Part shown: positions 9,176 through 63,219 of the stretch, piece by piece
Position numbering within the stretch: position 1 is the stretch's first letter
How the letters are laid out: each line of letters begins with the position of its first letter
Notes under the pieces: model-generated
Told to the model about the DNA's origin: nothing
What the model saw: the letters and a program-made list of their open reading frames with translations, nothing else
The model's database searches: none
Source: Candidatus Dormiibacterota bacterium
Lineage (GTDB): Bacteria > Chloroflexota > Dormibacteria > Aeolococcales > Bog-877
Assembly: GCA_963804565.1 (NCBI GenBank)
Contig: CAWDQV010000001.1
Span: 1,045,365-1,109,364 of the forward strand
Direction of reading: 5' to 3'
Length of the DNA: 64,000 nucleotides
Position numbers and translations under genes: made by a program

Positions 9176-9287
9176 CCCAACCGTCACCGCGGCGAACCAT
9201 CAGTGCACCGATATCTGATTCTTGCTGCGCGCCCGAAGTGCGCGACAATTGGGTCGGGCACAAGTCGGCGGGACCAAGGAGGAAGTA

Positions 9288-16361: not shown

Positions 16362-18308
16362 CCGGCCGGTAGAGCGTGTCGCGCTCCCGGGGAGTCCGTC
16401 CAGCACCCCGGATAGCGGCCTCGATATCCCAGGGATCGAGGTTCTGGCCATGGTCCGCCCCGCTCATCCGGGTGATCGACTCTTCCATAAGGGTTCCCCC
16501 GAAGTCATTTGCTCCCCAACGCAGCGACTCGGCGACTCCCTCGGGTCCCAGCTTCACCCAACTGGTCTGAATGTTGGGAATGTCGCTGCCGAAGTAGAGC
16601 CGGCAGAAGGCGGTGAACCGCAGGGAATCCTCGAGGGTGAGCGGCTCGCGAATGCCGAAGTACTTGCCCAGGGTGTTGTGCTGGACCTGGAATGGCAGCA
16701 GCACGAACTCACTTATCCCACCCGTCTCGCGCTGAAGGTTACGAATCACCTCCAGGTGCTGAAGTCGATGCCAGGGGTTCTCGATATGTCCGTACATGAT
16801 CGTCGAAGTCGTGGGGATTCCCACTCGGTGGGCGGTCTTGACGATCTCCACCCACTCCGAAGTGGTGAGTTTCTCGGGGCAGAGAATCCGGCGCACCTCC
16901 TCGACCAGGATCTCCGCGGCGGTTCCCGGCATGGTGCCCAAGCCGGCATCTTTCAACTGGCGTAGGACGTCTTCGACCGATCGTCCGGCCTCTTGGGAGA
17001 TGTAGCGAATCTCCTCCGGCGAGAGTGCGTGAAGGTGCAGCGTCGGCCAGCGCTCCTTGATCTCCCGGAAAAGCTGGTCGTAGAACCCGAGGTTCAACTC
17101 CGGGGTGAGTCCGGACTGCATGCAGATCTCGGTGGCCCCGCGATCGACCGCGTCCTCGATCTTGGCAAAGACGGTGTCGTGGTCATGGAAGTAGGCGCCC
17201 TTGGCGTTGATCGAGCTGCGCCGGAACCCGCAGAACGAACAGCTGCCGACGCAGACGTTGCTGATGTTTACGTTGCGATTGATCACGTAGGTGACCGTGT
17301 CCCCGACCAGTTCCTGGCGGAGCTTGTCGGCCGCCGGCTGAAGATCGGCGAGCGACTCCTGGTAGACGGGGAGTCTCTCCTGGAGGTGGTAGCCGAGGGT
17401 TCGGGCCTTGGCGGCCAGCTCCACTTCGCTGGGCCAATCGAACGCTGGGCTCACCGAGTCGCCATCCAGGGATATCCCACCGAGGTCGGTCGCTCCGGCC
17501 TCGACGAGTGATGGCCAGTTATCGAAATTGAGGTTCGGCGGAACCTGGACTGCGACATCGCTTGGCAGGATTGCCCGGGCCATCTCCACGGTGGCCCGCA
17601 CCGTCTCGGGGTCAGGGGCTGGCTGATCGGCCATCGGCGTGTCGGGCTTGGGGATGAAGTTCTGGACGATGACCTCTTGGATGTGCTGATGGCGCTGGTG
17701 GCAGTCCCGGATCAGTTCCAGGGCGTGCCGCCTGTCGTCCTCAGTCTCGCCAATCCCAACCAGGATGCCCGTCGTGAATGGAATCCCCAGCTCCCCGGCC
17801 GCCTCCAGGTGCGCCAGTCGCTCCTGATAGCGCTTGCCACCGCCCATGGCATGGGCCCGGATCTCGTCGGTGCCGGTCTCGAGCATCAGGCCCATCGATG
17901 CGTTCCAGGGCTGGAGGCGGGCCAGGCTGGCGCGCGAGAGCAGGCCTACATTGGTGTGGGGCAGCAGCCCGAGGCTCATCGCCCGGCGACACACCTCCTC
18001 GACCAGGTCGACGAACGCGTCCTCGTCGCGCAGACCGAGGTCGGGAAGGCGCCAAGGTTGCTCTCCGGCCATGATCAGCACCTCGCGGCAGCGCAGTCGG
18101 CTGGCCTCGGCCAGGTGGTGGTCGACCTCGGCCACGCTGATCAGCCCCCCTGATCCTTGCGGTACTCGCAGTAGCCGCAGCGTCGGTAGCAGCGGTAGGT
18201 GATGTCCACCGTGTAGCTGCGGCTGAAGGTCAGGTAGTGGGCGTGGTACTCCGGCTGGTGGCGAGTGGCGACGCCAGGCTGAACTGGGACGATCGCCTCA
18301 TAAGCCAT
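16294..18308 (-). CDS. fbiC: FO synthase FbiC (CofG/CofH fusion; 7,8-didemethyl-8-hydroxy-5-deazariboflavin synthase), interrupted by a 1-nt frameshift near 18137-18143
   Basis: The N-terminal fragment (18141-18308) carries the CofG radical-SAM motif TYRCYRRCGYCEY. The 613-aa body (16294-18135) carries the CofH radical-SAM motif CVGSCSFC plus CofG/CofH C-terminal regions. The two parts are in different frames, separated by a C6 (G6 on the coding strand) homopolymer. Adding one G would restore ...RKDQGGLISVAEVDHH.... A further frame change near 18310-18360 is possible. Confidence 0.8.
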
Positions 18309-18399
18309 GCCCAGATTATGAGACCAGGCCTGGGGGCCGGTCTCAGACTCCGGGTCGGGACCATCAGGCTGGAGAAGGCAGCTCGGTTCTTCTCCATGT

Positions 18400-19074
18400 A
18401 GCTGTCCAGGGCCATCAGCATCTGCTGCTGGAAGGCGAGGCGGTCGACAAGGTCGGACGGCGAGGCGCGATTGCTCTCGCCCGAGAGGTGGCGCTGGATC
18501 CAGGGCGGGATCGGTCGAGACCAGGTGGTTCGTTCCTGCGGACAGGATCACCGTCTCGGGGTGGTCGTCCTCGACCCGCAACCCGACCCGCAGCAGGATT
18601 CCGGTGCGGTTCGCGAGCGCCCAAATCCGCTCCCAGTGGCCCGGGATCCTGGCGCATCCGATCCGGGCGGGTGTAGCGGATGGCGGGGTCGTTGATGATG
18701 CTCATGTTGGAGTCGCCCCAGCGCACCAGCCGCTCGACCACCGGCTCGTCGAGGTCGCGGGAGACCCACATGCACCAGGGAGGCACACCGGTTGTCCAGG
18801 TCCGGGGGGATGAACCTGCGTTCCCTGCCGCATTGCCATCGCCAGCACCTCGACGATGCTCGCGTGGCGCAGGCAGTAGGCCCTTCCCTCCACCACCTTC
18901 AGGTGATCCTTGCAGGCCACCCAGGAGCAGTCCACCGCCCGCCGGTCCCGATATAGGCAGCGATAGGCTTCCTGCTCGCGAACACCCGGGCTGGTCGCAT
19001 CCACCTCCCTCGGGTTCGCCGTACCGCACGGGGATCTCCTGTTCGAGGGTGGGTCTGGTGGACGGATTGGCCAT
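18400..19074 (-). pseudogene. remnant of an unidentified gene (about 200 aa of protein-like sequence spread over three frames)
   Basis: Protein-like minus-strand segments are EAYRCLYRDRRAVDCSWVACKDHLKVVEGRAYCLRHASIVEVLA (frame mod 2), then PWCMWVSRDLDEPVVERLVRWGDSNMSIINDPAIRYTRPDRMRQDPG (mod 0), then HWERIWALANRTGILLRVGLRVEDDHPETVILSAGTNHLV (mod 2), then SDLVDRLAFQQQMLMALDSYMEKN (mod 1). No single intact ORF exists and the family was not recognised. Confidence 0.35.
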
Positions 19075-19255
19075 GTTTTAGCGCCTCCCTGGGCTGATTC
19101 ATCGAGGGCCATGTGCCCGTTGGGGGCGAAGCGACGGGGGCCGCAATCGCACTTGCACGGACAACTTGGGGCGAAGATAGCAGAGGAACTGAGGCTGGGC
19201 AAGGGATTTGCCAAGGGGTCGATTACTTGTGACAGTCTCCGTTAGTCGTACTGCT

Positions 19256-20815
19256 TCAGGGTAGAAGTCGGTAGGCGGGGATTGTCATGAACGGCACGAA
19301 GTTCGGATCCAGCGCTACCTCGGTGAACAGCTCAGCCGCCTCCCGATGATCGTCGCCTAGCTCCGCCAGCACCTCGTCGCGGATTGCCAGGACCTGTTCT
19401 CGAGTGACCTTTCGGTGGTGGACCCACTGCCAGATCTGGGAACGGGAGATCTCAGCGGTGGCGGCGTCTTCCATGAGGTTGTTGATCGCCGCCGCCCCCA
19501 CACCCCGGAGCCACGAGCTGAGGTACTGAATGCCCACCGAGACGTTGAGCCGCAGCCCAGCGTCTGTGATCTCTCCTGGTGTAGCCGCCACGTTGAGCAA
19601 CTCACCCGCTGTGATCTCCACCTCCTCGCGCCGTCGCTCCAGCTGGTGCGGCCGATCGCCCAGCACCTCGTCGAACACCCTTTCGCGACCGGGACCAGGT
19701 CCGGGTGGGCGACCCAGGTGCCGTCGAAGCCGTCGCCGGCCTCGCGAAGCTTGTCCTCGCGCACCTTCTCTAGCGCCAGCTGGTTGAGGGCGGCGTCGCG
19801 GCGGCTGGGGACGAAGGCGGCCATCCCGCCGATGGCGTGGGCGCGGCGCCGCGTGGCATGTCTTTACCAGGAGCTCGGTGTAGGCCCGCATGAAGGGAAC
19901 TGTCATTGACCACCGAACCGCGATCGGGGAGGATGAACGCGAGGGTCGTCGCGAAACTTCTTGATGATCGAGAACATGTAGTCCCAGCGCCCGGCATTCA
20001 GTCCGGTTGAGCGCTCCTGAAGCTCGTACAGGATCTCCTCCATCTCAAAAGCGGCGAGCACCGTCTCGATCAGGACGGTCGCTCTGATGGCACCTCTGGG
20101 GATCCCTAGATGGTCCTCCGCGAGGCGGCAGGCATCATTCCAGAGCCGCGCCTCCAGATGGCTCTCCAGCTTGGGCAGGTAGAGGTAGGGACCCGACCCT
20201 CGCTTCAGCAGCCTGGAGGCGCAATGGAACGTGAAGAGCCCGAAGTCGAATAAGCTGGCCGAGACCGGCTCTCCATCCACCAGTAGGTGCTTTTCCGGGA
20301 GGTGCCACCCCCTGGGTCGCACCACCAGAGTGGCGGTGCTCGGGTTGAGCTGGTAGCTCTTTCCCGCCGATTCCAGTGCAATGGTCCGCTCGACCGCGTC
20401 GATCAGGTTGCCCTTGGCCTTCCAGGCAGTTGGACCAGGTTGGCGAGTTGGCGTCCTCGAAATCGGCCATAAAGACGCTGGCCCCGGAATTGAGAGCGTT
20501 GATCATCATCTTCCGTTCGACTGGCCCGGTGATCTCCACCCGACGGTCGACCAGATCGGATGGCGGCGGCGCCACGTTCCAGCTCCTGTCCTCCCGGACC
20601 GTTCTGGTATCGGCCAGGAAGTCGGGCAGCTGACCTCGGTCCAGCTGCGCCTGCCGGACCTCGCGCGACCGCAGGAGCGCCTCCCGGGTTGGGCCCAATT
20701 CACGTTGCAGACGTGCCACCAGGGCCAGCGCCTCGGGGGTGAGCACCCGCTTCCCGGCCGCGCCCCCGTCTTGGACGATCTCGATCCCCGGGATGGGTTC
20801 GTCGGCAGCTGTCAC
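19256..20815 (-). pseudogene. aceB: malate synthase A (AceB), disrupted by at least 4 frameshifts
   Basis: The N-terminal segment is [20 protein letters not shown] (frame mod 1). The middle is [14 protein letters not shown]...[46 protein letters not shown] (mod 0). Then [14 protein letters not shown] (mod 1), [15 protein letters not shown]...[16 protein letters not shown] (mod 0), and the C-terminus [22 protein letters not shown]...FMTIPAYRLLP (mod 1). All are collinear with malate synthase A. One junction (after KTCH) looks like a single inserted G outside a long homopolymer. Confidence 0.8.
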
Positions 20816-22128
20816 GCGGATGGGGTCGTCTCGAACTGCGCCTCCTCGGTTGACCCCTGAAGGGCGAGGGTGGCGCTCTCACCGCCGGTGACGGTCTCCA
20901 GAACCGCGTCGAAGTAGCCTGCTCCGACTTCAGACTGATGGCGGGTCGAGGTGTAGCCCCTTTGCTCCAGTTCGAACTCGCGCTGCTGTAGACGGACGTA
21001 GGCGGTCATGCCCTCCTCCTCGTATCCCTTGGCCAGCTCGAACATGGAGCTGTTGGCGACGTGAAAGCCGGCCAGGGTCACGAATTGGAAGCGGTAGCCG
21101 AGCTCTCCCAGCTTCCACTGGAAGTCGGCGACCTCGGCATCGTTGAGATGCTTCTTCCAATTGAACGAGGGGGAGCAGTTGTAGGCCAGGATCTTCTCGG
21201 GGTACTTCCGATGGATCGCCCTGGCGAACTGAGCGGCTTCATCGAGGTTGGGGGTGGAGGTCTCGAACCAGAGGGCGTCGACGTAGGGTGCAAAGGCGAG
21301 TCCGCGAGCAATCACCGGATCAATCCCAGGACGTATCCGATAGAAACCCTCAGAGGTCCTCTCGCCGGTCAGGAAGGGCTTGTCCCGCGGGTCAACATCA
21401 CTGGTCAACAAGGTGGCGCTCAAGGCGTCGGTTCTCGCCACCAAGACGGTCGGGATGTCGAGTACATCACTGGCTAACCGGGCAGCTACCAATGTCCGTT
21501 CGAACTGGCTGGTCGGGATCAGAACCTTTCCACCAAGATGGCCGCACTTCTTCTCCGAGGCGAGTTGGTCCTCGAAGTGGACCCCGGCCACTCCGTTCTC
21601 GATCATCGACTTCATAAGTTCGAATGCGTGGAGTGGCCCACCAAACCCAGCTTCGGCGTCGGCCACGATAGGCACCACCCAATCACCGTCGTGGTGCCCC
21701 TCCGCCCAGGCGATCTGGTCGGCTCGGAGCATCGCGTTGTTGAGCCGGCGGGCGAGCGCGGGGGCGCTGTTGGCGGGATAGAGGCTCTGGTCTGGATAGG
21801 TTTCTCCGGAAAGGTTGGCATCGGCGGCTACCTGCCAGCCCGAGAGGTAGATCGCCTTCAGCCCGGCCTTGACCATCTGGACAGCCTGCTGGCCGGTCAG
21901 CGCGCCGAGGGCGGGTACGTAACCAGACGTGGTCAGCATCTCGAAGAGCCGTTCCGCACCACGGCGGGCCAGCGTGTGCTCAACGTGCACCGAGCCGCGT
22001 AGCCGGACCACCTCCTCGGCGGAATAGGGGCGGAAGACTGTCTTCCAGCGATCCGAATCCCAGCTCTGCAGGAGCTGCTCTGCGGGGCCAGGTTCTCTGC
22101 CGTTCGTATGCGCCGAGGTCGGTGTCAT
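20812..22128 (-). CDS. aceA: isocitrate lyase
   Basis: 438 aa, intact, with catalytic motif [11 protein letters not shown] and typical ICL sequence throughout. Its stop overlaps the aceB start by 4 nt. Confidence 0.95.
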
Positions 22129-22495
22129 GGCACCATGCCTCCTTTCCGAGGGCGATCGAGACTAGGGGAAGTGTTTGATCTTGGCTCCGCGCCAACGACT
22201 GCCGCGGACTTGGTCCGGTCGCGGCTGCGCGCCTGCTGTGGCCAGCTGGCGAGATGATCGCCGGCTTTCTGACGGTGCCCTCCCTGCTCCATCGGCAGAT
22301 CCTAGGGGCGAACCCGACGGCTGTCAATAATCGGCAGGTGGTTGCTTTGGGCGCGTCGGTAAGACGCGATGGCCAACCAAGGAGTTCGCGTGCGGACCCA
22401 TCCTCAGCCGATCGAGTGGACCTCGGCTGATCTAATTGAAGGCGCAAGAGTACTTTCGGGAACCGTCCACCGCCAGTTGGCGTCATCTTGAGTCG

Positions 22496-23116: not shown

Positions 23117-23263
23117 CTTCTTCTGCCCACTCCGCGCGGGTACCAACACTGTCGCCAGCTCTACCGCCGACTGACCGCGCGCTCAATGAGCACACAGAAC
23201 TAGCGTTCTGCGAGTCCGCTCGACTGCGCGATGTCGGTCGGGCGTCGTAGCGTGATTCACCGC

Positions 23264-23785
23264 TCATTGGCGCTTCACGATCCGGGTCCGGCGTCGGGGG
23301 CGTGCGCCGCCCAACCCATCCTTGGCAACAACGCTGATGGAACCGTCCGGCTCGAGTTCGACGCGCGTGGTCTGCGAGACATCCTCCACCCCGTGTTCGC
23401 GTAGCGCCTCATCGGCGTCCTCGATATCGAGCCCCTGGCTGCTGAGCGCGCCGGGATTCCAACGACCACCGGAGGCGAGAACCTTCGAGGAAGGCTGGAG
23501 AATTTGCCGAAGCAGAGGACTGTGCAAGCGGCCCTGCCCCACTGTCCAGTTGACCGCCAGCAGGGTGCCGATGATCAGCAGCCCCCCGAAAAGCGAGCTG
23601 TCGGGCCCGGTCATCGCGGGTTGTACAGCGTTGGCCACCAGCAGCACCAGGACCAGGTCGAAGATCGTCATCTGACCGAGCTCGCGCTTGCCGAAGAGTC
23701 GGAGTCCGACGATCATCACGAGGTAGATGGTCAGGCAGCGGACCACGATGTCCCAGGGGGCGATAGCGAGGTGAGTCAGGTCCAT
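23264..23785 (-). CDS. DUF421 (YetF-like) membrane protein
   Basis: MDLTHLAIAPWDIVVRCLTIYLVMIVGLRLFGKRELGQMTIFDLVLVLLVANAV matches the conserved N-terminus of DUF421/YetF proteins. The start is taken at the internal Met (the listed ORF begins at 23827). Confidence 0.7.
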   Translation of the reverse strand: MDLTHLAIAPWDIVVRCLTIYLVMIVGLRLFGKRELGQMTIFDLVLVLLVANAVQPAMTGPDSSLFGGLLIIGTLLAVNWTVGQGRLHSPLLRQILQPSSKVLASGGRWNPGALSSQGLDIEDADEALREHGVEDVSQTTRVELEPDGSISVVAKDGLGGARPRRRTRIVKRQ

Positions 23786-50373: not shown

Positions 50374-50572
50374 AAGGGCTCAAAGTGGTTGACATCCTCA
50401 CCCGCATGCACGATTGTGTGCCACAATTGGATTTACTCGATGGTGCGGGGAACCGGTTCACATCGCTTTCACTCACGTCACAATCACAACCGGCATCTAC
50501 AATCAGGCATCACCCTGAACGTCCAGGCGCTCAATTAGCTTGCGCCGCAGCAACCTAGGAGGAGACTCATCC

Positions 50573-51205
50573 ATGCCGCGAACCCCAAGGAGGACAGGCA
50601 CTCGGCGTACCACCGCGCGCCCTGCCGCAAGGACCACACGAAGGCCGGCGGCCAGGCGAACCGCCGCACGCACGACCGCACGTAGCACTACGGCGCGGCG
50701 GACCACAGCGCGGCGCACTACTCGCACCGCCCCCACCGCCGCTTCGCTGAGCAAGAACCTCTCAGCGCAGTTGAAGGCCCTGGAGAAGCGCCTGGCCGAC
50801 ATCGAGAAGAAGCTCGACGCGGCCGTGACCCGCAGCGCCGCCGCTCCTCGGACCACCCGTAAGCCCGCTCGGCGCACGACTGCTCGGCGTACCACAGCCC
50901 GGCGCACGGCCACTGCGCGGCCGGCGACTCGCGCGCGCCGGACCACCGCTCGCGCTACCACGGCGAAGCGTCGCACCGCCGCCCGGACGACACCCGCTCG
51001 TGCGACCACTCGGCGCCGGACGGCCCGGACTGCGACCGCAGCCGCGCCCCGTCGCGCCGCAGCGAAGAGGACCGGGCGCGCCCCGCGCAAGACGACGGCA
51101 CGCCGCGCTCCCCGCGCAGCGGCAGCTCCGAAGGCTGCACGTCGCCCTGCCAAGCGGCGGGGTCGGGTGACCCTATCCGGTGCCGGAGGATCCGGCGCCT
51201 CCTGA
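50573..51205 (+). CDS. highly basic Arg/Thr/Ala-rich tandem-repeat protein with a central amphipathic helix (possible nucleoid-associated/histone-tail-like protein)
   Basis: ATG at 50573 preceded by AGGAGGA. 210 aa, of which about 30% are Arg, arranged in (T)TARRT/ARRTTA repeats on both sides of SLSKNLSAQLKALEKRLADIEKKLDAAV. It is followed by an intrinsic terminator. The antisense frame is also open because of the repeat composition, but lacks a start context. Confidence 0.6.
   Translation: MPRTPRRTGTRRTTARPAARTTRRPAARRTAARTTARSTTARRTTARRTTRTAPTAASLSKNLSAQLKALEKRLADIEKKLDAAVTRSAAAPRTTRKPARRTTARRTTARRTATARPATRARRTTARATTAKRRTAARTTPARATTRRRTARTATAAAPRRAAAKRTGRAPRKTTARRAPRAAAAPKAARRPAKRRGRVTLSGAGGSGAS
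50590..51170 (+). repeat. imperfect tandem DNA repeats (about 12-15 nt units such as CGCACGACCGCA / CGGCGCACTACT) encoding the RRTTA repeats
   Basis: Visible periodicity of CGNACNACNGCNCGNCGN units across the ORF except for the central about 100 nt. Boundaries are approximate. Confidence 0.55.
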
Positions 51206-51235
51206 TACTTCGCTCTCTTCTCTCGGTCTCTCTAA

Positions 51236-51270
51236 AGGAGCGGGTCGCGGAGCCCGCTCCTTTTCCTTTT
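51236..51270 (+). terminator. intrinsic (rho-independent) terminator
   Basis: AGGAGCGGG-tcgcggag-CCCGCTCCT forms a perfect 9-bp GC-rich stem, followed by TTTTCCTTTT. It sits between the convergent repeat-protein gene and ltaE. Coordinates are approximate within a few nt. Confidence 0.7.
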
Positions 51271-51287
51271 CCCGGACCGGCATCAGA

Positions 51288-52322
51288 TCAGGCGGCGAAG
51301 ACCTTCAAAAGCCGCTCCGCCGCCTCCGCGACGTCCTCCATGCTCACGTCGAGGTGAGTCACTAGACGGACCGTGTGCGAGGCGAACGGTACCGCGAGGA
51401 CGCCTACCTGCTGCGCACGCTGGACGACCTGGTTCGCATCCAGGTCGGTTCGCAGCAGCACGATGTTGGTCTGCACCTCCGTCGGGTCGACCTTCACTCC
51501 GGGCGCCGCTTGAAGCTTCTCCGCCAGGTGCCGCGCCTTGCGGTGATCATCACCGAGGCGATCGAGGTTGTGTTCCAGAGCGAAGAGCCCGGCTGCGGCC
51601 AGGATGCCCACTTGGCGCATCCCGCCACCGAGCCGCTTGCGCCACGTGTGAGCACGGGCTCTCGCTTCAGTCGTTCCCACCCAGAGGGTGCCGGCGGGAC
51701 AACCGAGTCCCTTGGATAGAGCGAAGGTCGCCGAGTCCACGCAGTTGGTGAAATCGGTCATCGGCAATCCGACGCTGGTGGCTGCATTGGCCAGGCGGGC
51801 CCCGTCCAAATGCACTGCGAGACCCATGCGATGGGCGAGCTCGGTAGTGCGGCGCAACTCCTCGATTGGGGCTACCGTACCACCACGCCGGTTGTGGCTC
51901 TGCTCCAAGCAGAGTTGCGCCGTGCGAGGCTCATGATCCGGATCCCCGAGTCGTTCGAGCGAAGCCAACTGTGCCGGAGAAGGACATCCCGCGGAAGGAG
52001 CGTCGAAGTTACGCAGCTGGATCCCGGCGATCACCGCCGTGCCTGCCAGCTCGTAGTGGAGTATGTGCGACTCGGAGTCGACCAATACCTCTTCTCCTGG
52101 CACCGTGGCACTGGCAACGCCGATCAGGTTGGCCATTGTGCCGCTGGGACATAACAGCGCCGCCTCCTTACCGAGCAGGCTGGCGACCTGTTCCTCCAGA
52201 CGGCGCACGCTGGGGTCTTCGCCGAACACGTCATCGCCAACCTCGGCGGTGGCCATTGCCTGACGCATCCCCTCGGAAGGACGAGTCACCGTGTCGCTGC
52301 GCAGGTCAATTGCGTCAGCCAT
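51288..52322 (-). CDS. ltaE: low-specificity L-threonine aldolase
   Basis: 344-aa fold-type-I PLP enzyme. DLRSDTVTRPSEGMRQAMA...GDDVFGEDPSV...GTMANL are typical of LtaE. Confidence 0.85.
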   Translation of the reverse strand: MADAIDLRSDTVTRPSEGMRQAMATAEVGDDVFGEDPSVRRLEEQVASLLGKEAALLCPSGTMANLIGVASATVPGEEVLVDSESHILHYELAGTAVIAGIQLRNFDAPSAGCPSPAQLASLERLGDPDHEPRTAQLCLEQSHNRRGGTVAPIEELRRTTELAHRMGLAVHLDGARLANAATSVGLPMTDFTNCVDSATFALSKGLGCPAGTLWVGTTEARARAHTWRKRLGGGMRQVGILAAAGLFALEHNLDRLGDDHRKARHLAEKLQAAPGVKVDPTEVQTNIVLLRTDLDANQVVQRAQQVGVLAVPFASHTVRLVTHLDVSMEDVAEAAERLLKVFAA

Positions 52323-54757: not shown

Positions 54758-55372
54758 GTGCCGGAAGTGGTCGTGTCCTTCTTGGACGGCGAGGTCCTCT
54801 ACGGAGAGTTGCCCCTGTTGCACATGGACGACCCGTTCGTCGACCTGGATCTGCATACCCTGGACGGCAACACGCGACAGGCCCTAGTGCCGGTCAGCGG
54901 GGTGCGCCAGATAGACCTGACCAGGGTCGATCAGATGGGCGACGACTTCGACCTGAAGGCGTTGGCAAGGGTCGCCCTGCACTTCATCGATGGTCAGGTG
55001 ATGCGGGCTCACGTGGTAAACCCGGCGTCACTGCAGCGCTTCGGGTCCGTGTGGGACGTGATTGACGCGCAGAGCCGAGAGCACAAGATCTGCGCCGTCC
55101 CCTACACGGCGCTCAAGGGTGCCTTCTACGTTCGGCGATGGGATACCCGGTCTCCCCTGGAGCGCTCCAGCTCGGTCGCCGCTGGCCACTCCGGCCGGCG
55201 GCGACTGGCCGAGATCCAGTCCCGGCGCAACCGCCAATCGTTGAGCCGCAAGCTGCCCCATGGAGGAGGCGGCCTGATGGACCGGGTAGACCCTGGGGAG
55301 GGACGCCCCCCGAAACGGCGGGGGTCGCCTGGGGCGGAGGATGGTCCGCCCCCAGACAAGGGTTCCCGATGA
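54758..55372 (+). CDS. hypothetical protein with two Sm-like/beta-barrel-like modules and a disordered Arg/Gly-rich tail
   Basis: VVVSFLDGEVLYGELPLLHMDDPFVDLDL and ALHFIDGQVMRAHVVN resemble Sm1-type motifs (inference only). The stop overlaps the start of the downstream epimerase gene (ATGA). Confidence 0.45.
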   Translation: MPEVVVSFLDGEVLYGELPLLHMDDPFVDLDLHTLDGNTRQALVPVSGVRQIDLTRVDQMGDDFDLKALARVALHFIDGQVMRAHVVNPASLQRFGSVWDVIDAQSREHKICAVPYTALKGAFYVRRWDTRSPLERSSSVAAGHSGRRRLAEIQSRRNRQSLSRKLPHGGGGLMDRVDPGEGRPPKRRGSPGAEDGPPPDKGSR

Positions 55373-56319
55373 GGATCTTGGTCACCGGGGGTGCAGGGTT
55401 CATCGGCAGCCATCTCACCGACCGGCTCCTGCGTGAGGGCCACCAGGTGGGGGTGATCGATGACCTGAGCAGTGGCCGGCGGGAGCTGGTGAGTGGTCGG
55501 GCCCGCTTCTATCAACTGAGTGTGGAGAGCGAGTGGGTGAGCAGCGTGATCGACCGGGAGCGCCCCGAGGTCGTCTTCCACCTAGCGGCTCAGATCGACG
55601 TGCGCAAGTCGGTCAGCGATCCGCTCCATGACGCCAACGTCAACGTGCTGGGCACGGTCCGGCTGCTGGATGCCGCAGCCGGCGCTGGGGTCCGTCGATT
55701 CATCTTCGTTTCGTCGGGAGGGGCGATCTACGGGGACACCGAGACAATTCCAACTCCGGAATCCCACCCTTGGCGGCCGGCTTCCCCCTACGGCGCGGCC
55801 AAGGCCGCCGGTGAGGCGTACCTGACAGCCTTCGCCACCTCGTTTGGGCTCGAAACCGCGGTGCTGCGTCCGGGCAACGTCTACGGCCCCCGTCAGGATC
55901 CGCACGGCGAGGCCGGGGTGATCGCCATCTTCAGCGACCTGCTGCTCAGGGGCCAGCCGCCGGTAATCAATGGAGACGGGCTGCAGACCCGCGACTACGT
56001 CTTCGTCGATGATCTGGTGGAGGCGGCCGTCCTGCTGATCAGCGGCCCGCTCGGCCAGTACAACATCGGGACGGGCCGAGAGACCAGCGTGGTCGAGGTC
56101 GCCTCGGAGCTGGGCCGGGCGGTGACGGAGATTCGCCCCGGCAGCAGCCCACCGCCGCCACCTCTCTCGGGACCGGCACGGGACGGCGAACAGCGCCGTA
56201 GCTGCCTGGACTGCTCGTTGGCGGCCGCCCAGCTCGGCTGGACCGCCAAGGTATTGCTACCTGAGGGGCTGAGAAGGACGCTCACGTACTTTGCGGAGCG
56301 CGGCCCGAGTTACTTGTAG
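55369..56319 (+). CDS. NAD-dependent epimerase/dehydratase (GalE / UDP-glucose 4-epimerase-like SDR)
   Basis: [16 protein letters not shown] Rossmann motif and catalytic YGAAK. The start is taken at the ATG at 55369. The listed ORF from 55138 includes a junk-like leader. Confidence 0.85.
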
Positions 56320-56543
56320 CGGAAGGTGATCCTGCCCCTGGTCAGGTCATAGGGGCTGAGTTCGACCTTGACCTTGTCTCCGATCAGAGTTCGGATGTAG
56401 TGCTTGCGCATCTTGCCGGAGATGTAGGCGAGCACCGTCTGCCCCGTCTGGAGCTCCACCCGGAACTGGGCGTTGGGCAGCGGCTCGACCACCGTGCCTT
56501 CGATCTCGATGGTCTCTTCCTTCTGCTCCTCTACCGGAGTCAC
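56310..56543 (-). CDS. infA: translation initiation factor IF-1
   Basis: [66 protein letters not shown] is near-identical in pattern to the bacterial IF-1 S1 domain. A GTG start at 56543 gives a 77-aa protein. The longer ORF to 56642 adds an atypical leader. Confidence 0.85.
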
Positions 56544-56687
56544 GCGGGAGACACGAGGACGCGCGGGCCCGCGCCTGGCGCGGCCACCCATCGAGCGTCT
56601 TGCCAAATTGCCGACCTCCGAACTCAGCTGGGGAGACGGCACGACCAGCCGCTTCCAAGGAAGCTCGATTGTAGCCTGTGCCGGAGC

Positions 56688-57725
56688 TCAGCCCACCGGC
56701 ACCCGGGGCACCAGCTCGCCCCCGCCGCGATGTCGCGGACCGATCACGTGCACCAGCCGGCCGGCCCCCTCCAGCTCGCACTCGATCCGGTCTCCCGGCT
56801 CCAGGAAGCGGTTGCGCTCCTGGCCGCTGCCACCGCCGACGGTGCCGCTGGCCAGGACTTCGCCGGCCTCCAGGGGCTCTGCACCGGAAGCGTAGGAGAC
56901 CATTTCGGCGAAAGACCATCGGGCGGCGCCTAAGCGGGCCTGAGCAACCCGCTCCCCGTTCAGGAAGGCGCTGGCCGTGAGCTGAGACGGGTCCCCCAGC
57001 TCGTCCGCGGTCACCAGCCAGGGGCCGAGCCCACTCGCGAAGTCCTTGGACTTGGCCGGACCGAGGCGCACCTTCATCTCGTCCGCCTGGATGTCGCGTG
57101 CCGAGAAGTCGCAGAACACGGCGTAGCCGGCGATCGCCTGAGCGGCCTCCTCCAGGCTTAGGTCGCGGCCCCCGGAGAGGAGCACACAGGCCACCTCAAG
57201 CTCGTAGTCGAGAAGGTCGGTGTAGGCCGGCCAGGGCACTTCGGCCCCGGGGGCGAGAAGGGTCGCCGGGTTGCCCTTGTAATAGACCGGGCGCCGATAC
57301 CACGGCTCGGGTATTGCTTCATCCCGGCGTCTCGCCCCCGCCGCCACGTGCTCCTCGAACGCGTAGAAGTCGCGCAGCAGCGGGGGACGCAGCAGCGGCA
57401 GCCGCTCCACCTCGTCGGGCCGATAGACAAGGCGGCTGCCGGAGGGCGCGAGCTGATTCGGTTGCTGATTCGAGGCGAGCTCGATCGCCTCGGCGGCCAT
57501 CGTCAGCGCTCGCCGGCCACCGCGGAGCAGCGCCGTCAGTTCGGGGGGGAAGGTCGCCACGGCCCATCGGGCCGCATCCCCAGAACCCTGGTCCGCCCAC
57601 CACAACTCGCCGGCCGCAGTGACGTCCACCAGCCGGGGCGTTCCGGACTGGGAGTCGCCGACCTCGGCCACAACTCTCGGTATGAGCCCGAGCGAGCCGC
57701 CTATCCCGACCGTCGCGAGGCGCAT
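56688..57725 (-). CDS. fumarylacetoacetate hydrolase (FAH) family protein
   Basis: 345-aa ORF; the FAH-family call is by overall resemblance only, without a named motif, and rests partly on its position next to hmgA. Confidence 0.75.
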   Translation of the reverse strand: MRLATVGIGGSLGLIPRVVAEVGDSQSGTPRLVDVTAAGELWWADQGSGDAARWAVATFPPELTALLRGGRRALTMAAEAIELASNQQPNQLAPSGSRLVYRPDEVERLPLLRPPLLRDFYAFEEHVAAGARRRDEAIPEPWYRRPVYYKGNPATLLAPGAEVPWPAYTDLLDYELEVACVLLSGGRDLSLEEAAQAIAGYAVFCDFSARDIQADEMKVRLGPAKSKDFASGLGPWLVTADELGDPSQLTASAFLNGERVAQARLGAARWSFAEMVSYASGAEPLEAGEVLASGTVGGGSGQERNRFLEPGDRIECELEGAGRLVHVIGPRHRGGGELVPRVPVG

Positions 57726-57734
57726 GTCAGCTCC

Positions 57735-58866
57735 TCAGTCGTCGATCTTGGGCATCCAGGACTCGGCGTACTCCAAGATCTCCGCCTGCTCGGCGCCCGC
57801 CAGCGGATGGAGGGGGTGGACCGCATCGATCATGACGGCCACCTCGTCGTGGTGAGTCTTTGTCGACTGCCTGGCGCGCTCCACAGCCTTCGGTTGCGGG
57901 CCGTGATGGATGCCCTGGGGATGCCAGGTCATCATGCCGGCGTCGATCCCGGCGCGGCTCATGAACTCGCCCGCGTGGTAGAAGAGCACCTCGTCGTAGT
58001 CGATGTTGCGGTGGTAGAAGGGCAGCCTCACCGCTCCCTCGTCGTCGATGCCCTCGATCCGGCGAGGGGTGAAGGTGCAGAGGACGAAGCCCGAGGTCTT
58101 GAAGGTCGTGTGAACCGACGGGGGCAGGTGGTAACGGCCAGAAGTGACCGGACGGATGTCCCGCACGTTGAGCGCGAAGGCGCTCAGGTCGCCCTTCCAG
58201 CCGACCGTGTCGATCGGATCGAAGGGGTAGAAGACCCTGCGTCCACTGGCCCTCACGTTCGATCACCAGCTCCCACTCTCCAACAGCGTTGGGTGGGCCG
58301 GCTGGAATCGGCATCTCCGGCAGCCGCAGGACCGCCCGGTCGTACGGCGAGTGCTGCCCCATCCGGTCGGCGGGTGGCAGTTCGGGCATCTCGTTGGCAG
58401 CGATCACCAGCAGGAAGCTCTCCTCGCCCTCGGGGAAGATCCGGTGGGTGGTGCCTCGCGGGAGGACGATGTAGTCGCCCTGCTCGTAGGCCAGCTGGCC
58501 GAAGTCGGTCGACATCTCGCCGGCACCTCGATGGACGAAATAGATCAGGTCGGAGTCCGCGTTTCGGTACGCATAGGGCATCGCCGTGGTCCGTCGCGAG
58601 ATCTTGATCCGGAGGTCCTCGTTGCCCAGAACCGGCGTCAGTGCCGCTCTCGGGTCCTTGGCGTCGTCCGCCTCAACCCGCCGCAGGTCGTAGGCGCGTG
58701 GCCTGAGCGGGCCTTCGATTCGTAGCCACTCCGTCGGAGCGTGGGCATGGTAGAGGTGCGACGCTGGTCCGAAGAACCCCTGTCGGGCGAACTCCTCCTC
58801 ATAGGTTCCTTCGGGTAGGTCGCAGTGCGCCTGCCGGCTGTAGCGTCCTCTGGATTGAGGGAACAT
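57735..58866 (-). pseudogene. hmgA: homogentisate 1,2-dioxygenase (HmgA), split by a frameshift near 58256-58262
   Basis: The N-terminal 170 aa is in one frame (AYRNADSDLIYFVHRGAGEMSTDFGQLAYEQGDYIVLPRGTTHRI...EREGQWTQG). The C-terminal 173 aa is in another (VFYPFDPIDTVGWKGDLSAFALNVRDIRPVTSGRYHLPPSVHTTF...FYHRNIDYDEVLFYHAGEFMSR...). Removing one G from a GGG run joins them as ...QWTQVFYPFD. Confidence 0.75.
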
Positions 58867-58872
58867 TCGGGG

Positions 58873-59988
58873 TCAACCTCCCGAAAAGCTGATCACCGTC
58901 TTGATGTCGTCGGGCTGGCGGCTGAAGGCGTCTGCAAAATGCTCCGCCGAGACCCGGCGGGTGACGATCTGCTCCAGCACGCCGGGCCACTTTCGAACGG
59001 CAGCGCCCAGCATTCGAGCGGCCGCCTCGAAGTGGCGGCGGTTGGCGTTGACCGTTCCGAAGACGAGCTTGTTGCCCAGCACCATGTCCAGGTTGAGCGA
59101 ATCGGAGTCGACGGTGACCGTTCGCGTGCCGGCAGTCACCGAGCTGAGGCAGCAGACACCGTTATGGCCGGTGGCGGCGATGGCGTCCATGGCGACCGAG
59201 GAGGCGCCGGTCGCCTCGAAGATTATGTCGATATGCCCCAGCTCCGCCGCCAGCCCGGAGACGGGATGCTGGTCGGCATCGAGAAGGTTGGCGCCTACTG
59301 CTTTGGCGACCTTGAATGCGGGTGACGTCGGGTCGGCCTTCGCCACCAGACTCACCTCAAGGTCGCGCAGGCGCAGAAAGATGGCGGCAAGCAGGCCAAC
59401 CGCCCCAGCCCCGCAGACCAACGCTTGCTTCGGGTCCCAGGGCATTCGGCCGCGCTGAATGCTGAAGCACTGGATCAGACCCTTCTCGACGATGCTGCTT
59501 GGCTCCATCAGCACCCCGACCTTAGTCAGCGTGGAGGGCAGCGGGATCGAGGTAGTCCGCGGACTCGACGTAGCGCTCGGCCATGTACCCGTCCCGGCCC
59601 TTGATCCCGCGCTCGGTGTAGTTGCCGGTCAGGCAGTCGTCACTCTGGCCGGCGGCGCACGGTGGACAGCGCTCCGGACAGGGCCGCCGGACGGTGGCCA
59701 CCACCAACTGCCCCTTCTGCAGGTCGACTGCCGGCGGGGGCGCTGACACACCCGCCCGAGGTTCTCGTGGCCCAGCACCAGGCTGTCACGGCCCGCGGGA
59801 GGTGCGCCGTAGCCATCGTTGGCGATCTCCAAGTCGGTGCCGCAGACGCCGACCTCGACCACTTCGACCTCAACGGCTGCGCCCGGCTTGCCGTCAGCCC
59901 CCTGCACCATCCCGGTCCCGGAGGGCTCGCTGATCTCACCGAGCCTGACGCTGCCCTTGGTGCCCGGGGTGGTGACGATGGCCTTCAT
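58873..59988 (-). pseudogene. Zn-dependent medium-chain dehydrogenase (glucose/threonine dehydrogenase-like), split into three frames
   Basis: The catalytic-zinc region is VEVGVCGTDLEIANDGYG...[11 protein letters not shown] (frame 1). The structural-zinc site is [16 protein letters not shown] (frame 2). The Rossmann domain is ALVCGAGAVGLLAAIFL...VNANRRHFE (frame 3). Confidence 0.7.
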
Positions 59989-60015
59989 CGACTGCCTCCT
60001 AGCTGCGGCCGCAGA

Positions 60016-61009
60016 TCACGGCAAGCCTATCGTTATTGGTCCGGGAGCAGGGTGATGCCCCTCAGGTTGAGCGGCCGGCGGATCGCCAGGTACACCACCG
60101 CCCCTACCACGGTGACCAGGAGCCGGTCGAAGGCCCGGTTCGAGAATTGCGATCGCGGCGGCCACCGGTGTAGCGAGGCCGAAGGCCACCAACAGAAAGG
60201 TCATCGAGCCTTCGTACGCGCCGATCCCACCGGGGAGGAGGCTGATCCCCCCGGCGAGGTTGGCGATGGCGTAAACGAATGCCACCTGGTAGACCCCGAG
60301 ATTCACCCCGACGCTCCGGACGGTGAAGATAGAACATGGCGATGGCGGTCACTGCTGCCACCGGTCCCAGCAGCGCGGGCCAAAGGGTTGCTGGGCGCCG
60401 GGCGATGAGGATCACGTCGCGGTGGAGCGCCACCAGGTCAGCCGAGTACCGGCGGACGATCGGAACCTTCACCGCGAAGTGCATCACCAAGTTGAACCCC
60501 CGGGGCCAGAGCAGGATGGTGGAGATTCCCATGATCCCTAACAGGGCGACCACGACCGCCTCCTGGGCTCCGGGGATCCGCCCCGCGCCGGGTACCGCGG
60601 CGGCGATCAGCCCGATTGGATAGAGGAGCTCCTGGACCACCACGGTGGCCGATACCTCCCCCAAACTCACCTTGGCATGCTGGCGCAGGATGAAGGCGCG
60701 GCTGAGTTCGCCCAGGGGCAAGATGGCTGTCGGCTGGCCCGCGAAATATATGAGGATGGTCTCCAGAGCCCCGTGGTCCAGCTTCAGGGGCTTGAGGAAG
60801 AGGTGCCACTGATACCCCTTGATCAGGTAATAGGTGAGCGAGAGCAGCAGCACCAGGGGAAGGTAGGCAAGGTTGAAGCGGCTCAGCGCTTGGCCCAGCT
60901 CGTCGGGACGTACGTAGGCGACGATCAGACCGAGGATGGCAAGGCTGATGAAAGCTGCGAGCACCGTGCGCAAGCTGAGGAAATGCCGAGTGCTGGCTGA
61001 GCCTTTCAT
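60016..61009 (-). pseudogene. UPF0104 / lysylphosphatidylglycerol-synthase-TM-region-like membrane protein, frameshifted near 60290-60320
   Basis: The N-terminal 230 aa is in one frame (polytopic; YLIKGYQWHLFLKPLK). The conserved C-terminal segment VAFVYAIANLAGGISLLPGGIGAYEGSMTFLLVAFGL is in another frame. Both frames end in Arg/Gly/Pro-rich junk. Confidence 0.6.
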
Positions 61010-61145: not shown

Positions 61146-62141
61146 ATGGCGCCCCTCCTCGAAATCGAGAACCTGAGGACCTACATCCGGCAGCGCCAGG
61201 GTGAGGTTCGTGCGGTCGATGGCGTCTCTCTGACAATCGATGAGGGTGAGACGCTCGGCTTGGTCGGCGAATCCGGTTGCGGTAAGACCATGACAGGAAT
61301 GTCGATCATGAGGTTGCTGCCGCCTGGCGGCTACATAGCCGGAGGCAGCATCCGCCTTCGCGGAAAGGACCTCGCGACGATCGGCGAGTCGGAGATGCGT
61401 CACGTGCGTGGCAACGAAGTGGCGGTGATCTTCCAAGATCCCATGACCTCGCTCAACCCGACCATGCAGGTCGGCCAGCAGATCGCAGAGTCGGTGCGTA
61501 TCCACCGCAACGCGTCCAAGGTCGAGGCAATGAAACGCGCGGAAGAGGTTTTGGGACTAGTCGGAATGCCCCGGCCGCGAGAACGGCTGAAGGACTACCC
61601 TCACCAACTCTCCGGCGGGCTACGCCAAAGAGTGATGATCGCCATCGCACTCGCATGTGATCCGAAGCTCCTCATTGCAGATGAGCCCACGACAGCTCTC
61701 GACGTGACAATCCAGTTGCAGATCCTCGAGCTCTTGTACGACCTCAAGCAACGACTGCGCATGTCGGTGTTGTTGATCACCCACGACATGGGTGTGATCG
61801 CGGGACGCGCCGACCGAGTCATGGTGATGTACGCCGGGAAAATCGCAGAATCTGCAGAAACAGGTGAGCTTTTCGACAATGCGCGCCATCCCTATACCGA
61901 GGCCCTGCTCTCCTCCGTACCGCGCATGGATCAGCGCGAGGACCTGCCGTTGTACAGCATTCCGGGACTCCCTCCGGATCTGTCGCATCCACCGACCTGG
62001 TGTCGATTCCAGCCGCGCTGCCGTTATGCCACCGACCGATGCCACGAGGAGGAACCGGAGCTGAGCGGCGAGACGCCTGATCATAAATACGCATGCTTCA
62101 ACCCGGTGTCGGGCCGCCTGTCGCGGGAGGGCGTAGCTTGA
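61146..62141 (+). CDS. oligopeptide/dipeptide ABC transporter ATP-binding protein (OppD/DppD-like)
   Basis: Walker A GESGCGKT, signature LSGGLRQR, Walker [13 protein letters not shown], and a C-terminal oligopeptide-transporter extension ([14 protein letters not shown]). Confidence 0.9.
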
Positions 62142-62175
62142 CCGGCGTCGCCAGTCGCCCGGCAAGGAGGACCGA

Positions 62176-63219
62176 ATGACCGCTAGTCCGGCAGTCCTCG
62201 AGGACAGCCCGCTCGCTGACGTCGAGGCGCCGCTGGTTGAGCTGCGTCATCTGGTCAAAGAGTTCAACGTGACGTCAGGTGCGGTCCTGCAGCGAAAAAT
62301 CGGAACCATCAAGGCCGTCTCCGACGTGACCTTCTCGATCGGCAAGGGTGAGACCTTTGGGTTGGTCGGTGAGTCGGGCTGCGGCAAGACCACCGTCGGT
62401 AGATTGATGGTGGGGCTCGAAAAGCCGACGTCGGGGCAGCTGATCTTCGAGGGGCGTGACATCGCGCAACTCAAGGGCTCAGAGCGCCGGCACCAGCGGC
62501 GCGACCTTCAATTGATGTTCCAGGATCCCTATGCGTCGCTCGATCCGCGCATGCGGGTGGGGACGATCATTCGCGAGCCTCTCCAGGTCCAAAACATCGG
62601 AACCAAGGAAGAGCGGAAGGCGCGGGTAAGGCAGCTTCTTTCCGAGGTCGGGCTCAGCCCCAAGGCGGTGGACTTTTACCCGCACGAGTTCTCCGGCGGC
62701 CAACGACAGCGCATCGGTCTGGCCAGGGCGCTCAGCCTGAATCCCAAGCTCATCGTCGCCGACGAGCCTGTCTCTGCTCTCGACGTCTCGATCAGGTCGC
62801 AGATCCTGAATCTGATGAACAGTCTGCAGGCTTCGCACGGGCTCACTTACCTAGTCATCTCCCACGATCTGTCGGTGGTGAAGTACCTCTCAGACCGGGT
62901 CGGCGTGATGTACCTGGGCAAGATGGTGGAGCTCGCGCCCAGCCACACGATCTACGAGAAGCCAGCCCACCCCTACACCGTCGGGCTGATCAACTCGATC
63001 CCGGAGCCCGACCCCAAGCACGAGCGGTCCAAGAAGGTCGAGCCGATCTTTGGTGAGCTTCCTTCGGCGATGAACCCTCCCAGCGGGTGTCGATTCCGGA
63101 CCAGGTGCCCGCGCGCCCAGGACCTCTGCGCCGAGCAGGAGCCACCGCTGCGCCGCTTCGGAATAAAGCACTGGGCGGCTTGCCACTTTCCCATGCAGGA
63201 GCCGGTCGCTTCCGCCTGA
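62176..63219 (+). CDS. oligopeptide/dipeptide ABC transporter ATP-binding protein (OppF/DppF-like)
   Basis: Walker A GESGCGKT, signature FSGGQRQR, Walker B LIVADEPVSALD, and a C-terminal CRFRTRCPRAQDLC. Confidence 0.9.
   Translation: MTASPAVLEDSPLADVEAPLVELRHLVKEFNVTSGAVLQRKIGTIKAVSDVTFSIGKGETFGLVGESGCGKTTVGRLMVGLEKPTSGQLIFEGRDIAQLKGSERRHQRRDLQLMFQDPYASLDPRMRVGTIIREPLQVQNIGTKEERKARVRQLLSEVGLSPKAVDFYPHEFSGGQRQRIGLARALSLNPKLIVADEPVSALDVSIRSQILNLMNSLQASHGLTYLVISHDLSVVKYLSDRVGVMYLGKMVELAPSHTIYEKPAHPYTVGLINSIPEPDPKHERSKKVEPIFGELPSAMNPPSGCRFRTRCPRAQDLCAEQEPPLRRFGIKHWAACHFPMQEPVASA

Follow-up and report, generated by a model that had tools for sequence, protein, structure and literature searches.

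Clustered frameshifts in a Dormibacterota genome assembly probably reflect collapsed strain variation rather than pseudogenisation

In a long-read assembly of T. brucei, INDEL errors and apparent frameshifts arose where alleles with variants close together had been collapsed (Cosentino, Brink and Siegel 2021, PMC8445201). Errors in Nanopore and HiFi assemblies are usually linked to homopolymers and are rich in deletions (PMC12007338). In real bacterial pseudogenes, 300 insertions have been counted against 396 deletions, and the sizes of these indels follow a power law (PMC6054270). Here we analyse a 64,000-nucleotide stretch of DNA from a Candidatus Dormiibacterota bacterium (the window), in which the frameshifts that we found are confined to two short blocks.

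The original prediction placed the second block on the minus strand, in genes for a homogentisate dioxygenase (hmgA), a zinc-dependent dehydrogenase of the MDR type, and a UPF0104 membrane protein. We found all three of these genes to be broken there. The prediction also described the adjacent FAH-family hydrolase and both ABC ATPase genes as intact, and indeed their ORFs are whole and the hydrolase has the length of its orthologs. The genes in and beside this block are:

56688..57725, minus strand: FAH-family hydrolase, intact, 345 amino acids (ORF; PF01557, 170.8 bits)
57735..58866, minus strand: HgmA-like cupin dioxygenase, 376 amino acids once one base is removed (HgmA_N, 26.8 bits; cut-off 20.2)
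58873..59988, minus strand: glucose 1-dehydrogenase (zinc MDR), 370 amino acids once three bases are removed (PF16912, 192.9 bits; PF08240, 57.8 bits)
60036..61009, minus strand: UPF0104 / LPG_synthase_TM flippase-like membrane protein, 324 amino acids once two bases are removed (PF03706, 113.8 bits)
61146..63219, plus strand: pair of ABC ATPase genes, both intact, encoding 331 and 347 amino acids (ORFs)

The FAH-family hydrolase has 345 amino acids in nearly all of the relatives that we checked (340-353 in a few). The window has no private indel in this gene, and contig L140 aligns to it without gaps. The protein scores 59.7 bits against TIGR01266 (fumarylacetoacetase), which is under the equivalog cut-off of 375.3, so it is assigned to the FAH family by PF01557 only. 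The HgmA-like protein matches HGD entries in the PDB (E = 4e-10), and it scores 53.3 bits against TIGR01015, under the equivalog cut-off of 510.75. Judged by its sequence, it belongs to the homogentisate dioxygenase superfamily but only distantly, and it is not an HmgA equivalog. After correction, the dehydrogenase has both of its domains at full length and above the gathering score, and its orthologs are named glucose 1-dehydrogenase. (This gene also looks split in one relative, L007, but the split is only apparent and is an NN scaffold gap.) The corrected UPF0104 protein covers positions 5-302 of the 302 in the PF03706 profile, above the gathering score, and scores 58.9 bits against TIGR00374 (cut-off 43.2); its orthologs have 323-326 amino acids in most relatives.

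By comparison with 13-16 orthologs, we identified six breaks within the genes of block 2 (at 58240, 59549, 59730, 59748, 60142, and 60329), and each of them is an insertion of a single base outside any homopolymer. The original prediction had counted at least four breaks in 3.3 kb; the clustering stands, but the count is six within genes, and these lie in 2.1 kb (58240-60329). Deleting the six bases yields ORFs of 376, 370, and 324 amino acids, which are exactly the lengths of the orthologs. For part of the block we could also compare the window to a contig from the same species (L141, assembled by Logan from run ERR10755941), which covers positions 56474-60112 at 99.5% identity. The sites, all read on the minus strand, are:

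58239..58240, minus strand: extra base in ACG/C/AGG, a G/C doublet at the third position of a Thr codon; an insertion relative to 13 relatives, absent from L141, synonymous
59547..59549, minus strand: extra base in CT-C-G-A-TC, where L141 has CTC GTC and the relatives have CTG ATC
59729..59730, minus strand: extra base in GG/C/A GTC, a C/A doublet at the third position of a Gly codon; absent from L141
59748, minus strand: extra base in GTG/T/GTC; absent from L141
60142, minus strand: extra base in CT/C/G AAC, a C/G doublet at the third position of a Leu codon; outside the coverage of the same-species contig
60329, minus strand: extra base in TA/T/C, a T/C doublet at the third position of a Tyr codon; outside the coverage of the same-species contig
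58867, minus strand: intergenic A, present in L141 and not in the relatives; a real species-level difference and no artefact

A plot of GC content by codon position switches phase at every break, with a strong coding signal on either side. Elsewhere in the window, frame switches called by the HMM (at 2607, 6950, 13253, 32566, 44113, and others) correspond to gene junctions or to weak-signal stretches between complete ORFs.

These sites change how the three genes should be repaired. The dioxygenase was to be restored by dropping a G from a GGG run, which gives QWTQVFYPFD. We rejected this repair in favour of QWTRVFYPFD, as the conserved residue is Arg and L141 has ACG-AGG where the window has ACGCAGG; the HgmA-like protein of L141 shows 100% identity to our corrected protein. 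The dehydrogenase is frameshifted, as claimed, but its N-terminal and C-terminal parts are not in different frames. Both are in the same frame, given the three insertions, and the shift is confined to the middle part (59549-59730) and to a stretch of 18 nt. Conversely, the UPF0104 gene occupies three frames and not two, with insertions at 60329 and 60142.

L141 encodes the 370-amino-acid dehydrogenase and the 376-amino-acid HgmA-like protein in intact genes, and the extra base is missing at all four of the sites that it covers. Its dehydrogenase is identical to the corrected one at 366 of 370 positions. At 59547 the window has GA, which is the L141 allele (G) together with the relatives' allele (A), shifted. 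Of the 13 SNPs between L141 and the window, 11 lie in 59416..60033, inside block 2 (1.8%, versus 0.07% across the other 2.9 kb). L141 may be from another sample, and it proves that a strain of the same species is intact, not that the window's own strain is. Direct evidence from the same species comes from members of the FAH cluster only, which cover neither the UPF0104 sites nor block 1. Searches with the corrected dehydrogenase, UPF0104 protein, and malate synthase returned no representative above 93%, 86%, and 87% identity, respectively.

A block with a similar pattern had been noted at 18-21 kb, and comparison with relatives bears this out:

18145..20415, minus strand: first broken block (comparison with relatives)
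16294-18308, minus strand: FO-synthase-like protein, 671 amino acids when corrected (block 1)
18343-19074, minus strand: conserved hypothetical protein, 241 amino acids when corrected (block 1)
19256-20815, minus strand: malate synthase A, 518 amino acids when corrected (block 1)
20812..22128, minus strand: isocitrate lyase, intact, 438 amino acids, flanking block 1 (ORF)

Block 1 has ten +1 insertions within genes (at 20415, 19942, 19908, 19852, 18978, 18811, 18772, 18646, 18512, and 18349), two intergenic insertions (at 19236 and 19095), and two one-base deletions, both beside G-runs (at 19684 and 18145).

Across the 34.7 kb of the window that could be aligned to 5-10 relatives, we found 17 internal frameshifting indels that are not compensated (18 with the one at 18349, which is at the 3' end of a gene). 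All of them lie in 4.4 kb, and the rest of the alignable sequence is as clean as predicted, with zero further internal frameshifts. In the same 34.7 kb, the relatives have no such frameshifts, except for length differences at gene ends or junctions and one compensated pair. Comparison with relatives had been proposed as a check, and no relative is frameshifted at any of these sites.

The two blocks are alike in length (2.1 and 2.3 kb), and together they contain 19 insertions and 2 deletions, all of 1 nt. Given the ratio of insertions to deletions in pseudogenes (300:396), this spectrum has P = 8e-6. Within genes, 16 of the 18 events are insertions, mostly outside any homopolymer. Slippage in homopolymers was rejected as the cause because 15 of the 19 inserted bases differ from both of their neighbours. 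The inserted bases are spread about evenly over A, C, G, and T, although the DNA is 67% GC. We also looked for substitutions that are private to the window, at columns that are invariant among the relatives. These show no excess in either block (3.6% vs. 3.8% for block 1 and 2.0% vs. 4.3% for block 2), and the data rule out an extra neutral divergence of 2% (P < 5e-4). No nonsense codon occurs in the corrected ORFs of either block. The damage ignores gene borders: the FO synthase gene is affected at its 5' end only, the HgmA-like gene only in its middle, and the UPF0104 gene only in its 3' third, and the intergenic spacers within block 1 are affected as well. We found no dip in GC content at the blocks, no repeats or inverted repeats at their edges, and no motif (a methylation motif, for instance) that the insertion sites have in common. 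The nearest relative is unchanged inside the blocks, where the clustering of SNPs is all that speaks for import by recombination. Scans of the whole window for Rfam families and tRNAs gave no matches.

The identity of the inserted bases is informative. For 13 of the 16 insertions within genes, putting the extra base in place of its neighbour would be a synonymous change (0.33-0.37 is expected for random insertions; P = 1e-4 to 4e-4). The three misfits are at 19852, 18811, and 20415 (the last on a strict count). Furthermore, for 14 of the 19 insertions, the extra base is an allele that relatives have at the adjacent column (null 0.315, P = 2e-4).

We consider it very likely that these events are artefacts of some kind, and probable that the breaks arose in the consensus from collapsed strain variation, not from pseudogenisation. 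The sample would hold at least two closely related strains, and we infer that the differences between them lie mainly in tracts only about 2 kb long. Wherever one substitution, or two adjacent ones, separates the strains, the consensus would retain both alleles side by side, and each such site would gain one base and shift the frame. A maximum-likelihood consensus would tend to behave in this way under an error model that penalises indels lightly and substitutions heavily: "both bases are present and each read is missing one" would then beat "half of the reads have a substitution." The two deletions beside G-runs in block 1 would be ordinary homopolymer under-calls from long reads. OY969577.1, the chromosome of a sibling in the Dormibacterota, is a MAG made with Flye and Medaka from Nanopore reads alone, and the platform for the window's own assembly is a guess. 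One point against collapsed strains is that an insertion-only profile outside of homopolymers is not what is usually reported for either Nanopore or HiFi assemblies (PMC12007338). The original prediction had favoured a locally degraded consensus, and had named strain heterogeneity and long-read stretches as potential causes; the +1 spectrum, the natural alleles, and L141 all favour this view. We conclude that six genes are intact and under purifying selection (those for the HgmA-like dioxygenase, glucose 1-dehydrogenase, UPF0104 protein, FO synthase, 241-amino-acid protein, and malate synthase). For the three genes of block 2, their intactness is almost certain.

A different kind of artefact, which would not involve strain polymorphism, is random residual sequencing error, whether from two stretches of low coverage or from a long-read bridge or gap fill that was left unpolished. 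Two clustered blocks of similar length, a spectrum of almost pure indels without an excess of substitutions, deletions that adjoin G-runs, and a roughly even mix of inserted bases despite the high GC content would all suit this explanation. Genes are known to be broken up by consensus errors in long-read assemblies (PMC12007338), and the errors in CLR reads are random (PMC4678779). But random errors should not prefer synonymous doublets (13/16 vs. 0.35) or the alleles of relatives (14/19 vs. 0.315), nor should they coincide with the tract of SNPs in L141, and the edges of the blocks have no GC dip or repeat. We therefore view random error as unlikely. Programmed recoding, in which ribosomal frameshifting or transcript slippage restores the frames, has nothing in its favour except that genes which are otherwise well conserved contain frameshifts. 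Across the three genes, the six sites have no motif, slippery run, or homopolymer in common, all relatives keep their frame there, and L141 lacks the insertions at the four sites that it covers, so we give this idea essentially no credence.

If the breaks are real, then the strain has recently lost the three genes of block 2 along with malate synthase, FO synthase, and the 241-amino-acid gene. The public protein records of the source assembly do include the same broken products (of 211 and 301 amino acids), which exact look-ups assign, with other proteins of the window, to one contig of 2,391,061 bp in NCBI/ENA, and L141 may represent a different strain. However, natural pseudogenes do not have spectra like the one found here, with 19 insertions and 2 deletions that are all 1 nt and with mostly non-templated insertions (PMC6054270). 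Neither excess substitutions nor nonsense codons are seen, the damage follows position instead of genes, and the inserted bases are synonymous or are natural alleles. Also, the genes are intact and syntenic in all of the relatives and in the 99.5%-identical member of the same species. Recent strain-specific pseudogenisation is thus highly unlikely. The regional pseudogenisation that was originally offered as the alternative is disfavoured by the lack of a substitution excess, by the disregard for gene borders, and by the absence of the insertions from L141. Because pseudogenisation is disfavoured, the suggestion that the organism has lost homogentisate cleavage is dropped as well. That suggestion was weak anyway, given the low score of the "hmgA" protein (53 bits vs. 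a cut-off of 510.75) and a hydrolase that is far under the fumarylacetoacetase cut-off. It is very improbable that the insertions are real in the strain but were written by an unknown process (such as recombination between diverged strains in which heteroduplex mismatches were resolved faultily), which would have placed non-templated single bases at variable sites in tracts of about 2 kb and would have inactivated six conserved genes very recently.

Thus, the breaks are very likely an ordinary assembly artefact and not a real feature. No biological consequence is expected: the HgmA-like dioxygenase, glucose dehydrogenase, flippase-like protein, malate synthase, and FO synthase of the organism most likely all still work. 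But the public assembly from which the window comes, a single contig of 2.39 Mb, contains false pseudogenes and records of truncated proteins (P0139 and P0148 among them), and metabolic reconstructions would falsely report that the glyoxylate shunt, F420 synthesis, and an aromatic/sugar cluster were lost. Collapsed strains would leave a signature of +1 insertions that form synonymous doublets of natural alleles, are clustered in short tracts, and are not accompanied by added substitutions. This signature can separate the artefact from real decay without reads, using only the sequence and its relatives.

The closest described case is that of T. brucei, in which allelic variants near one another displaced the alignment of reads and introduced INDELs, and in which the ORFs truncated by these INDELs became full length once the haplotypes were separated (PMC8445201); in our analysis, a separate contig (L141) plays that role. 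The variants in T. brucei are on the two chromosomes of a diploid, while here they would belong to bacterial strains that co-occur in a metagenome and differ in tracts of about 2 kb. Indel errors at homopolymers in Nanopore, HiFi, or 454 data likewise give rise to apparent pseudogenes through 1-nt indels (Watson and Warr 2019 in PMC12007338; PMC9262707). The deletions at 18145 and 19684 in block 1 fit that class. In contrast to that class, 16 of the 18 events within genes are insertions here, and most involve neither a homopolymer nor the duplication of a neighbouring base. Genuine pseudogenes that decay neutrally (Danneels et al. 2018, PMC6054270) resemble our genes in having several frameshifts per gene and functional orthologs in relatives. 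But in those pseudogenes, deletions outnumber insertions (396:300), indel sizes follow a power law, and about half of the insertions are direct repeats, whereas our blocks have 19 insertions and 2 deletions, each of 1 nt. Genuine pseudogenes should also gain substitutions, and the two blocks show no excess of these.

Every gene of the block 2 finding lies on the minus strand of the window, which has a GC content of 60-70%. Upstream of an FAH-family hydrolase gene are three genes that are each split between frames:

56688-57725, minus strand: FAH-family hydrolase gene, intact ORF, 345 aa
57735-58866, minus strand: HgmA-like cupin dioxygenase gene, frame-split
58873-59988, minus strand: Zn-dependent MDR dehydrogenase (glucose 1-dehydrogenase) gene, frame-split
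60036-61009, minus strand: UPF0104 (flippase-like membrane protein) gene, frame-split

When GC content is plotted by codon position, the phase shifts near 58270, 59540, 59720, 60150, and 60380, and a six-state codon-position HMM agrees with this plot. Because the third-position GC signal remains strong before and after each shift, the coding signal is undamaged. (The HMM also classed as non-coding several stretches about 1 kb long, at 8471-9263, 22081-23343, and 50263-51292. We found no tRNA genes, and no Rfam families at the gathering score, in 1-64000.) We located the breaks by aligning the DNA of each gene with 13-16 orthologs. Every break in block 2 is one base that the window has and that none of the aligned relatives shares:

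Extra bases in block 2 (bracketed), from alignment with orthologs
60329, TTCTA[T]CTTC, UPF0104
60142, TTCT[C]GAAC, UPF0104
59748, GGGTG[T]GTCA, dehydrogenase
59730, GCCGG[C]AGTC, dehydrogenase
59549, TACCT[C]GATC, dehydrogenase
58240, GGAC[G]CAGG, HgmA-like

The original prediction was correct that these genes are frameshifted and that the neighboring FAH hydrolase is intact, but ortholog alignment gives six breaks, not four, and the UPF0104 gene, which had been placed in two frames, is put in three by its two insertions. The first and last parts of the dehydrogenase share a frame because its three insertions add up to +3. With the six bases deleted, the ORFs are 324, 370, and 376 aa long, which are exactly the ortholog lengths.

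The corrected proteins match PF03706 (UPF0104), PF08240 and PF16912 (dehydrogenase), and, weakly, HgmA_N (HgmA-like). "hmgA" scores 53 bits versus an equivalog cut-off of 510.75 bits, and the FAH protein scores 59.7 bits versus 375.3 for fumarylacetoacetase, so the pathway names hold at the superfamily level only. These two distant superfamily members adjoin the glucose 1-dehydrogenase and flippase-like genes, and most of the compared Dormibacterota relatives conserve this adjacency.

Querying a genome collection with the corrected HgmA-like protein gave 59 loci, of which the closest 26 are from Candidatus Dormibacterota MAGs (83-92% amino-acid identity). The window is syntenic with relatives across 47.7-63.2 kb (74-80% nucleotide identity), and the four genes are intact in most relatives checked: UPF0104 has 323-326 aa, the dehydrogenase 368-370 aa, the HgmA-like protein 376 aa, and FAH 345 aa (340-353 in a few). 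The apparently split dehydrogenase of one relative (L007; palsa_862, PKXE01000172.1) reflects an NN scaffold gap at 9345-9348 that removed about 61 nt of the gene.

Exact look-ups placed the window's isocitrate lyase, FAH, both ABC ATPases, and two broken products, a 211-aa dehydrogenase fragment (P0139) and a 301-aa frameshifted UPF0104 protein (P0148), on one NCBI/ENA contig of 2,391,061 bp. This contig is the source assembly, and the breaks are carried over into its public protein set. The FAH protein cluster also includes two Logan proteins (99% identity). Two Logan contigs align with the window: L140 (SRR27973124) with 55109-57925 (99.15% identity, gap-free) and L141 (ERR10755941) with 56474-60112 (99.5% identity). 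L141, which may derive from another sample than the source assembly, covers four of the insertion sites and has the extra base at none of them; same-species coverage does not extend to block 1 or to either UPF0104 site. Its called genes include a 370-aa dehydrogenase, identical to the corrected window protein at 366 of 370 positions, and a 376-aa HgmA-like protein that is identical to the corrected one. At 59547, L141 has CTC GTC, the relatives have CTG ATC, and the window has CTCGATC, which, judged from these sequences, is both alleles, shifted.

Most of the substitutions between L141 and the window (11/13) fall within 59416-60033 (618 nt; 1.8% versus 0.07% elsewhere), so strain differences are concentrated where the dehydrogenase insertions sit. 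Several of these SNPs are nonsynonymous (Q90K, I147V, T152K, and D184E in the dehydrogenase), and strain-to-strain recombination may have produced this tract. An intergenic "insertion" at 58867 is real, as it is common to L141. L141 also has an error-like change: at L141:2384-3420 (window about 57549), a C7 run reads C6, which splits its FAH into 62 + 292 aa; both L140 and the window read C7 there and have an intact FAH of 345 aa.

In nearly every insertion, the extra base and its neighbor read as two alternative third-position bases of a codon (TA[T/C], CT[C/G], GG[C/A], AC[G/C], CA[A/G], CC[T/C], GA[T/C], TC[G/C], and others). The inserted base would replace its neighbor synonymously in 13 of 16 in-gene insertions, versus 0.33-0.37 for random insertions into the same genes (P between 1e-4 and 4e-4); 3 insertions fall outside this rule. 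In a test that is independent of synonymy, and whose result is opposed by aligner bias, the inserted base is an allele found in relatives at the adjacent column in 14/19 insertions (0.315 expected, P = 2e-4). Neither mutation nor random sequencing error would be expected to respect synonymy, but standing polymorphism among strains under purifying selection does.

We also compared the window with 5-10 relatives across 34.7 kb and recorded the indels unique to each sequence. (For 10.8-32.4 kb, the syntenic relatives came from metagenomes scanned with the intact isocitrate lyase as the query.) By coding mask, the window carries 17 frameshifting indels that are internal and uncompensated, or 18 with 18349 at a gene's 3' end, and all of them lie within 18145-20415 (block 1, minus strand) or 58240-60329 (block 2, minus strand). 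Across the same 34.7 kb, the relatives have no internal frameshifting indels except for one compensated pair and length variation at the ends or junctions of genes. Together with the contiguous complete ORFs in the stretches for which there are no relatives, this census upholds the original picture of a window that is clean apart from two separate blocks. The edges of the blocks coincide with no repeat, no drop in GC content, and no switch in the closest relative. Other window-private non-3n indels, at 56658, 54505, 24803, and 29583, are in intergenic spacers or a gene junction and look like ordinary lineage differences, given similar indels at the same junctions in relatives.

Block 1 contains 10 in-gene +1 insertions, 2 intergenic insertions, and 2 one-base deletions beside G-runs, and its correction gives an FO-synthase-like protein (671 aa), a conserved hypothetical protein (241 aa), and malate synthase (518 aa). 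The only break in the fused CofG/CofH-type FO synthase (16294-18308, minus strand) is the deletion at 18145 beside a G-run, a homopolymer-type error unlike the insertions. The 241-aa protein (18343-19074, minus strand) has a Cys-rich N-terminus and no Pfam or NCBIfam match; in Dormibacterota its gene is conserved, with synteny, between those for FO synthase and malate synthase.

Alternatively, these genes might be genuine pseudogenes, as the original prediction allowed, but we consider this very improbable. All indels in the two blocks are one base long, and insertions outnumber deletions 19 to 2, while real bacterial pseudogenes show 300 insertions and 396 deletions with a power-law range of sizes, and about half of their insertions are direct repeats (PMC6054270). 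The difference in insertion:deletion counts is significant (P = 8e-6). Furthermore, 15 of the 19 insertions match neither neighboring base, which rules out slippage as their source. At columns that are invariant in all relatives, window-private differences are not in excess in block 1 (43/1187 inside versus 168/4429 outside) or in block 2 (24/1215 versus 288/6711), and 2% extra neutral divergence in the blocks is excluded. The corrected ORFs contain no stop codons. Finally, the blocks extend over parts of genes and over spacers, which implies that the damage tracks DNA position, not gene identity.

The block 2 frameshift feature is almost certainly not biological. At the level of sequence, we have shown that the block events are +1 insertions at naturally variable sites, absent from the conspecific assembly at the sites covered. 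The natural-allele doublets, and the lack of the covered extra bases in L141, support the artefact that was originally suspected, and its strain-heterogeneity version in particular. The source sample probably contained at least two strains that differed over short tracts, and at some SNPs both alleles may have been written into the consensus. Likelihood-based consensus calling that penalizes indels lightly and substitutions heavily would give this outcome at balanced sites. Our guess is that the source is, plausibly, a Nanopore-only Flye and Medaka MAG, like its sibling OY969577.1. The usual long-read errors are homopolymer-linked and deletion-rich (PMC12007338), a profile that fits only the two G-run deletions of block 1. 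In a PacBio-based collapsed diploid assembly, INDEL errors and ORF truncations arose from allelic variants lying close together and were cured by phasing (PMC8445201), which is the same effect as we propose for the window.
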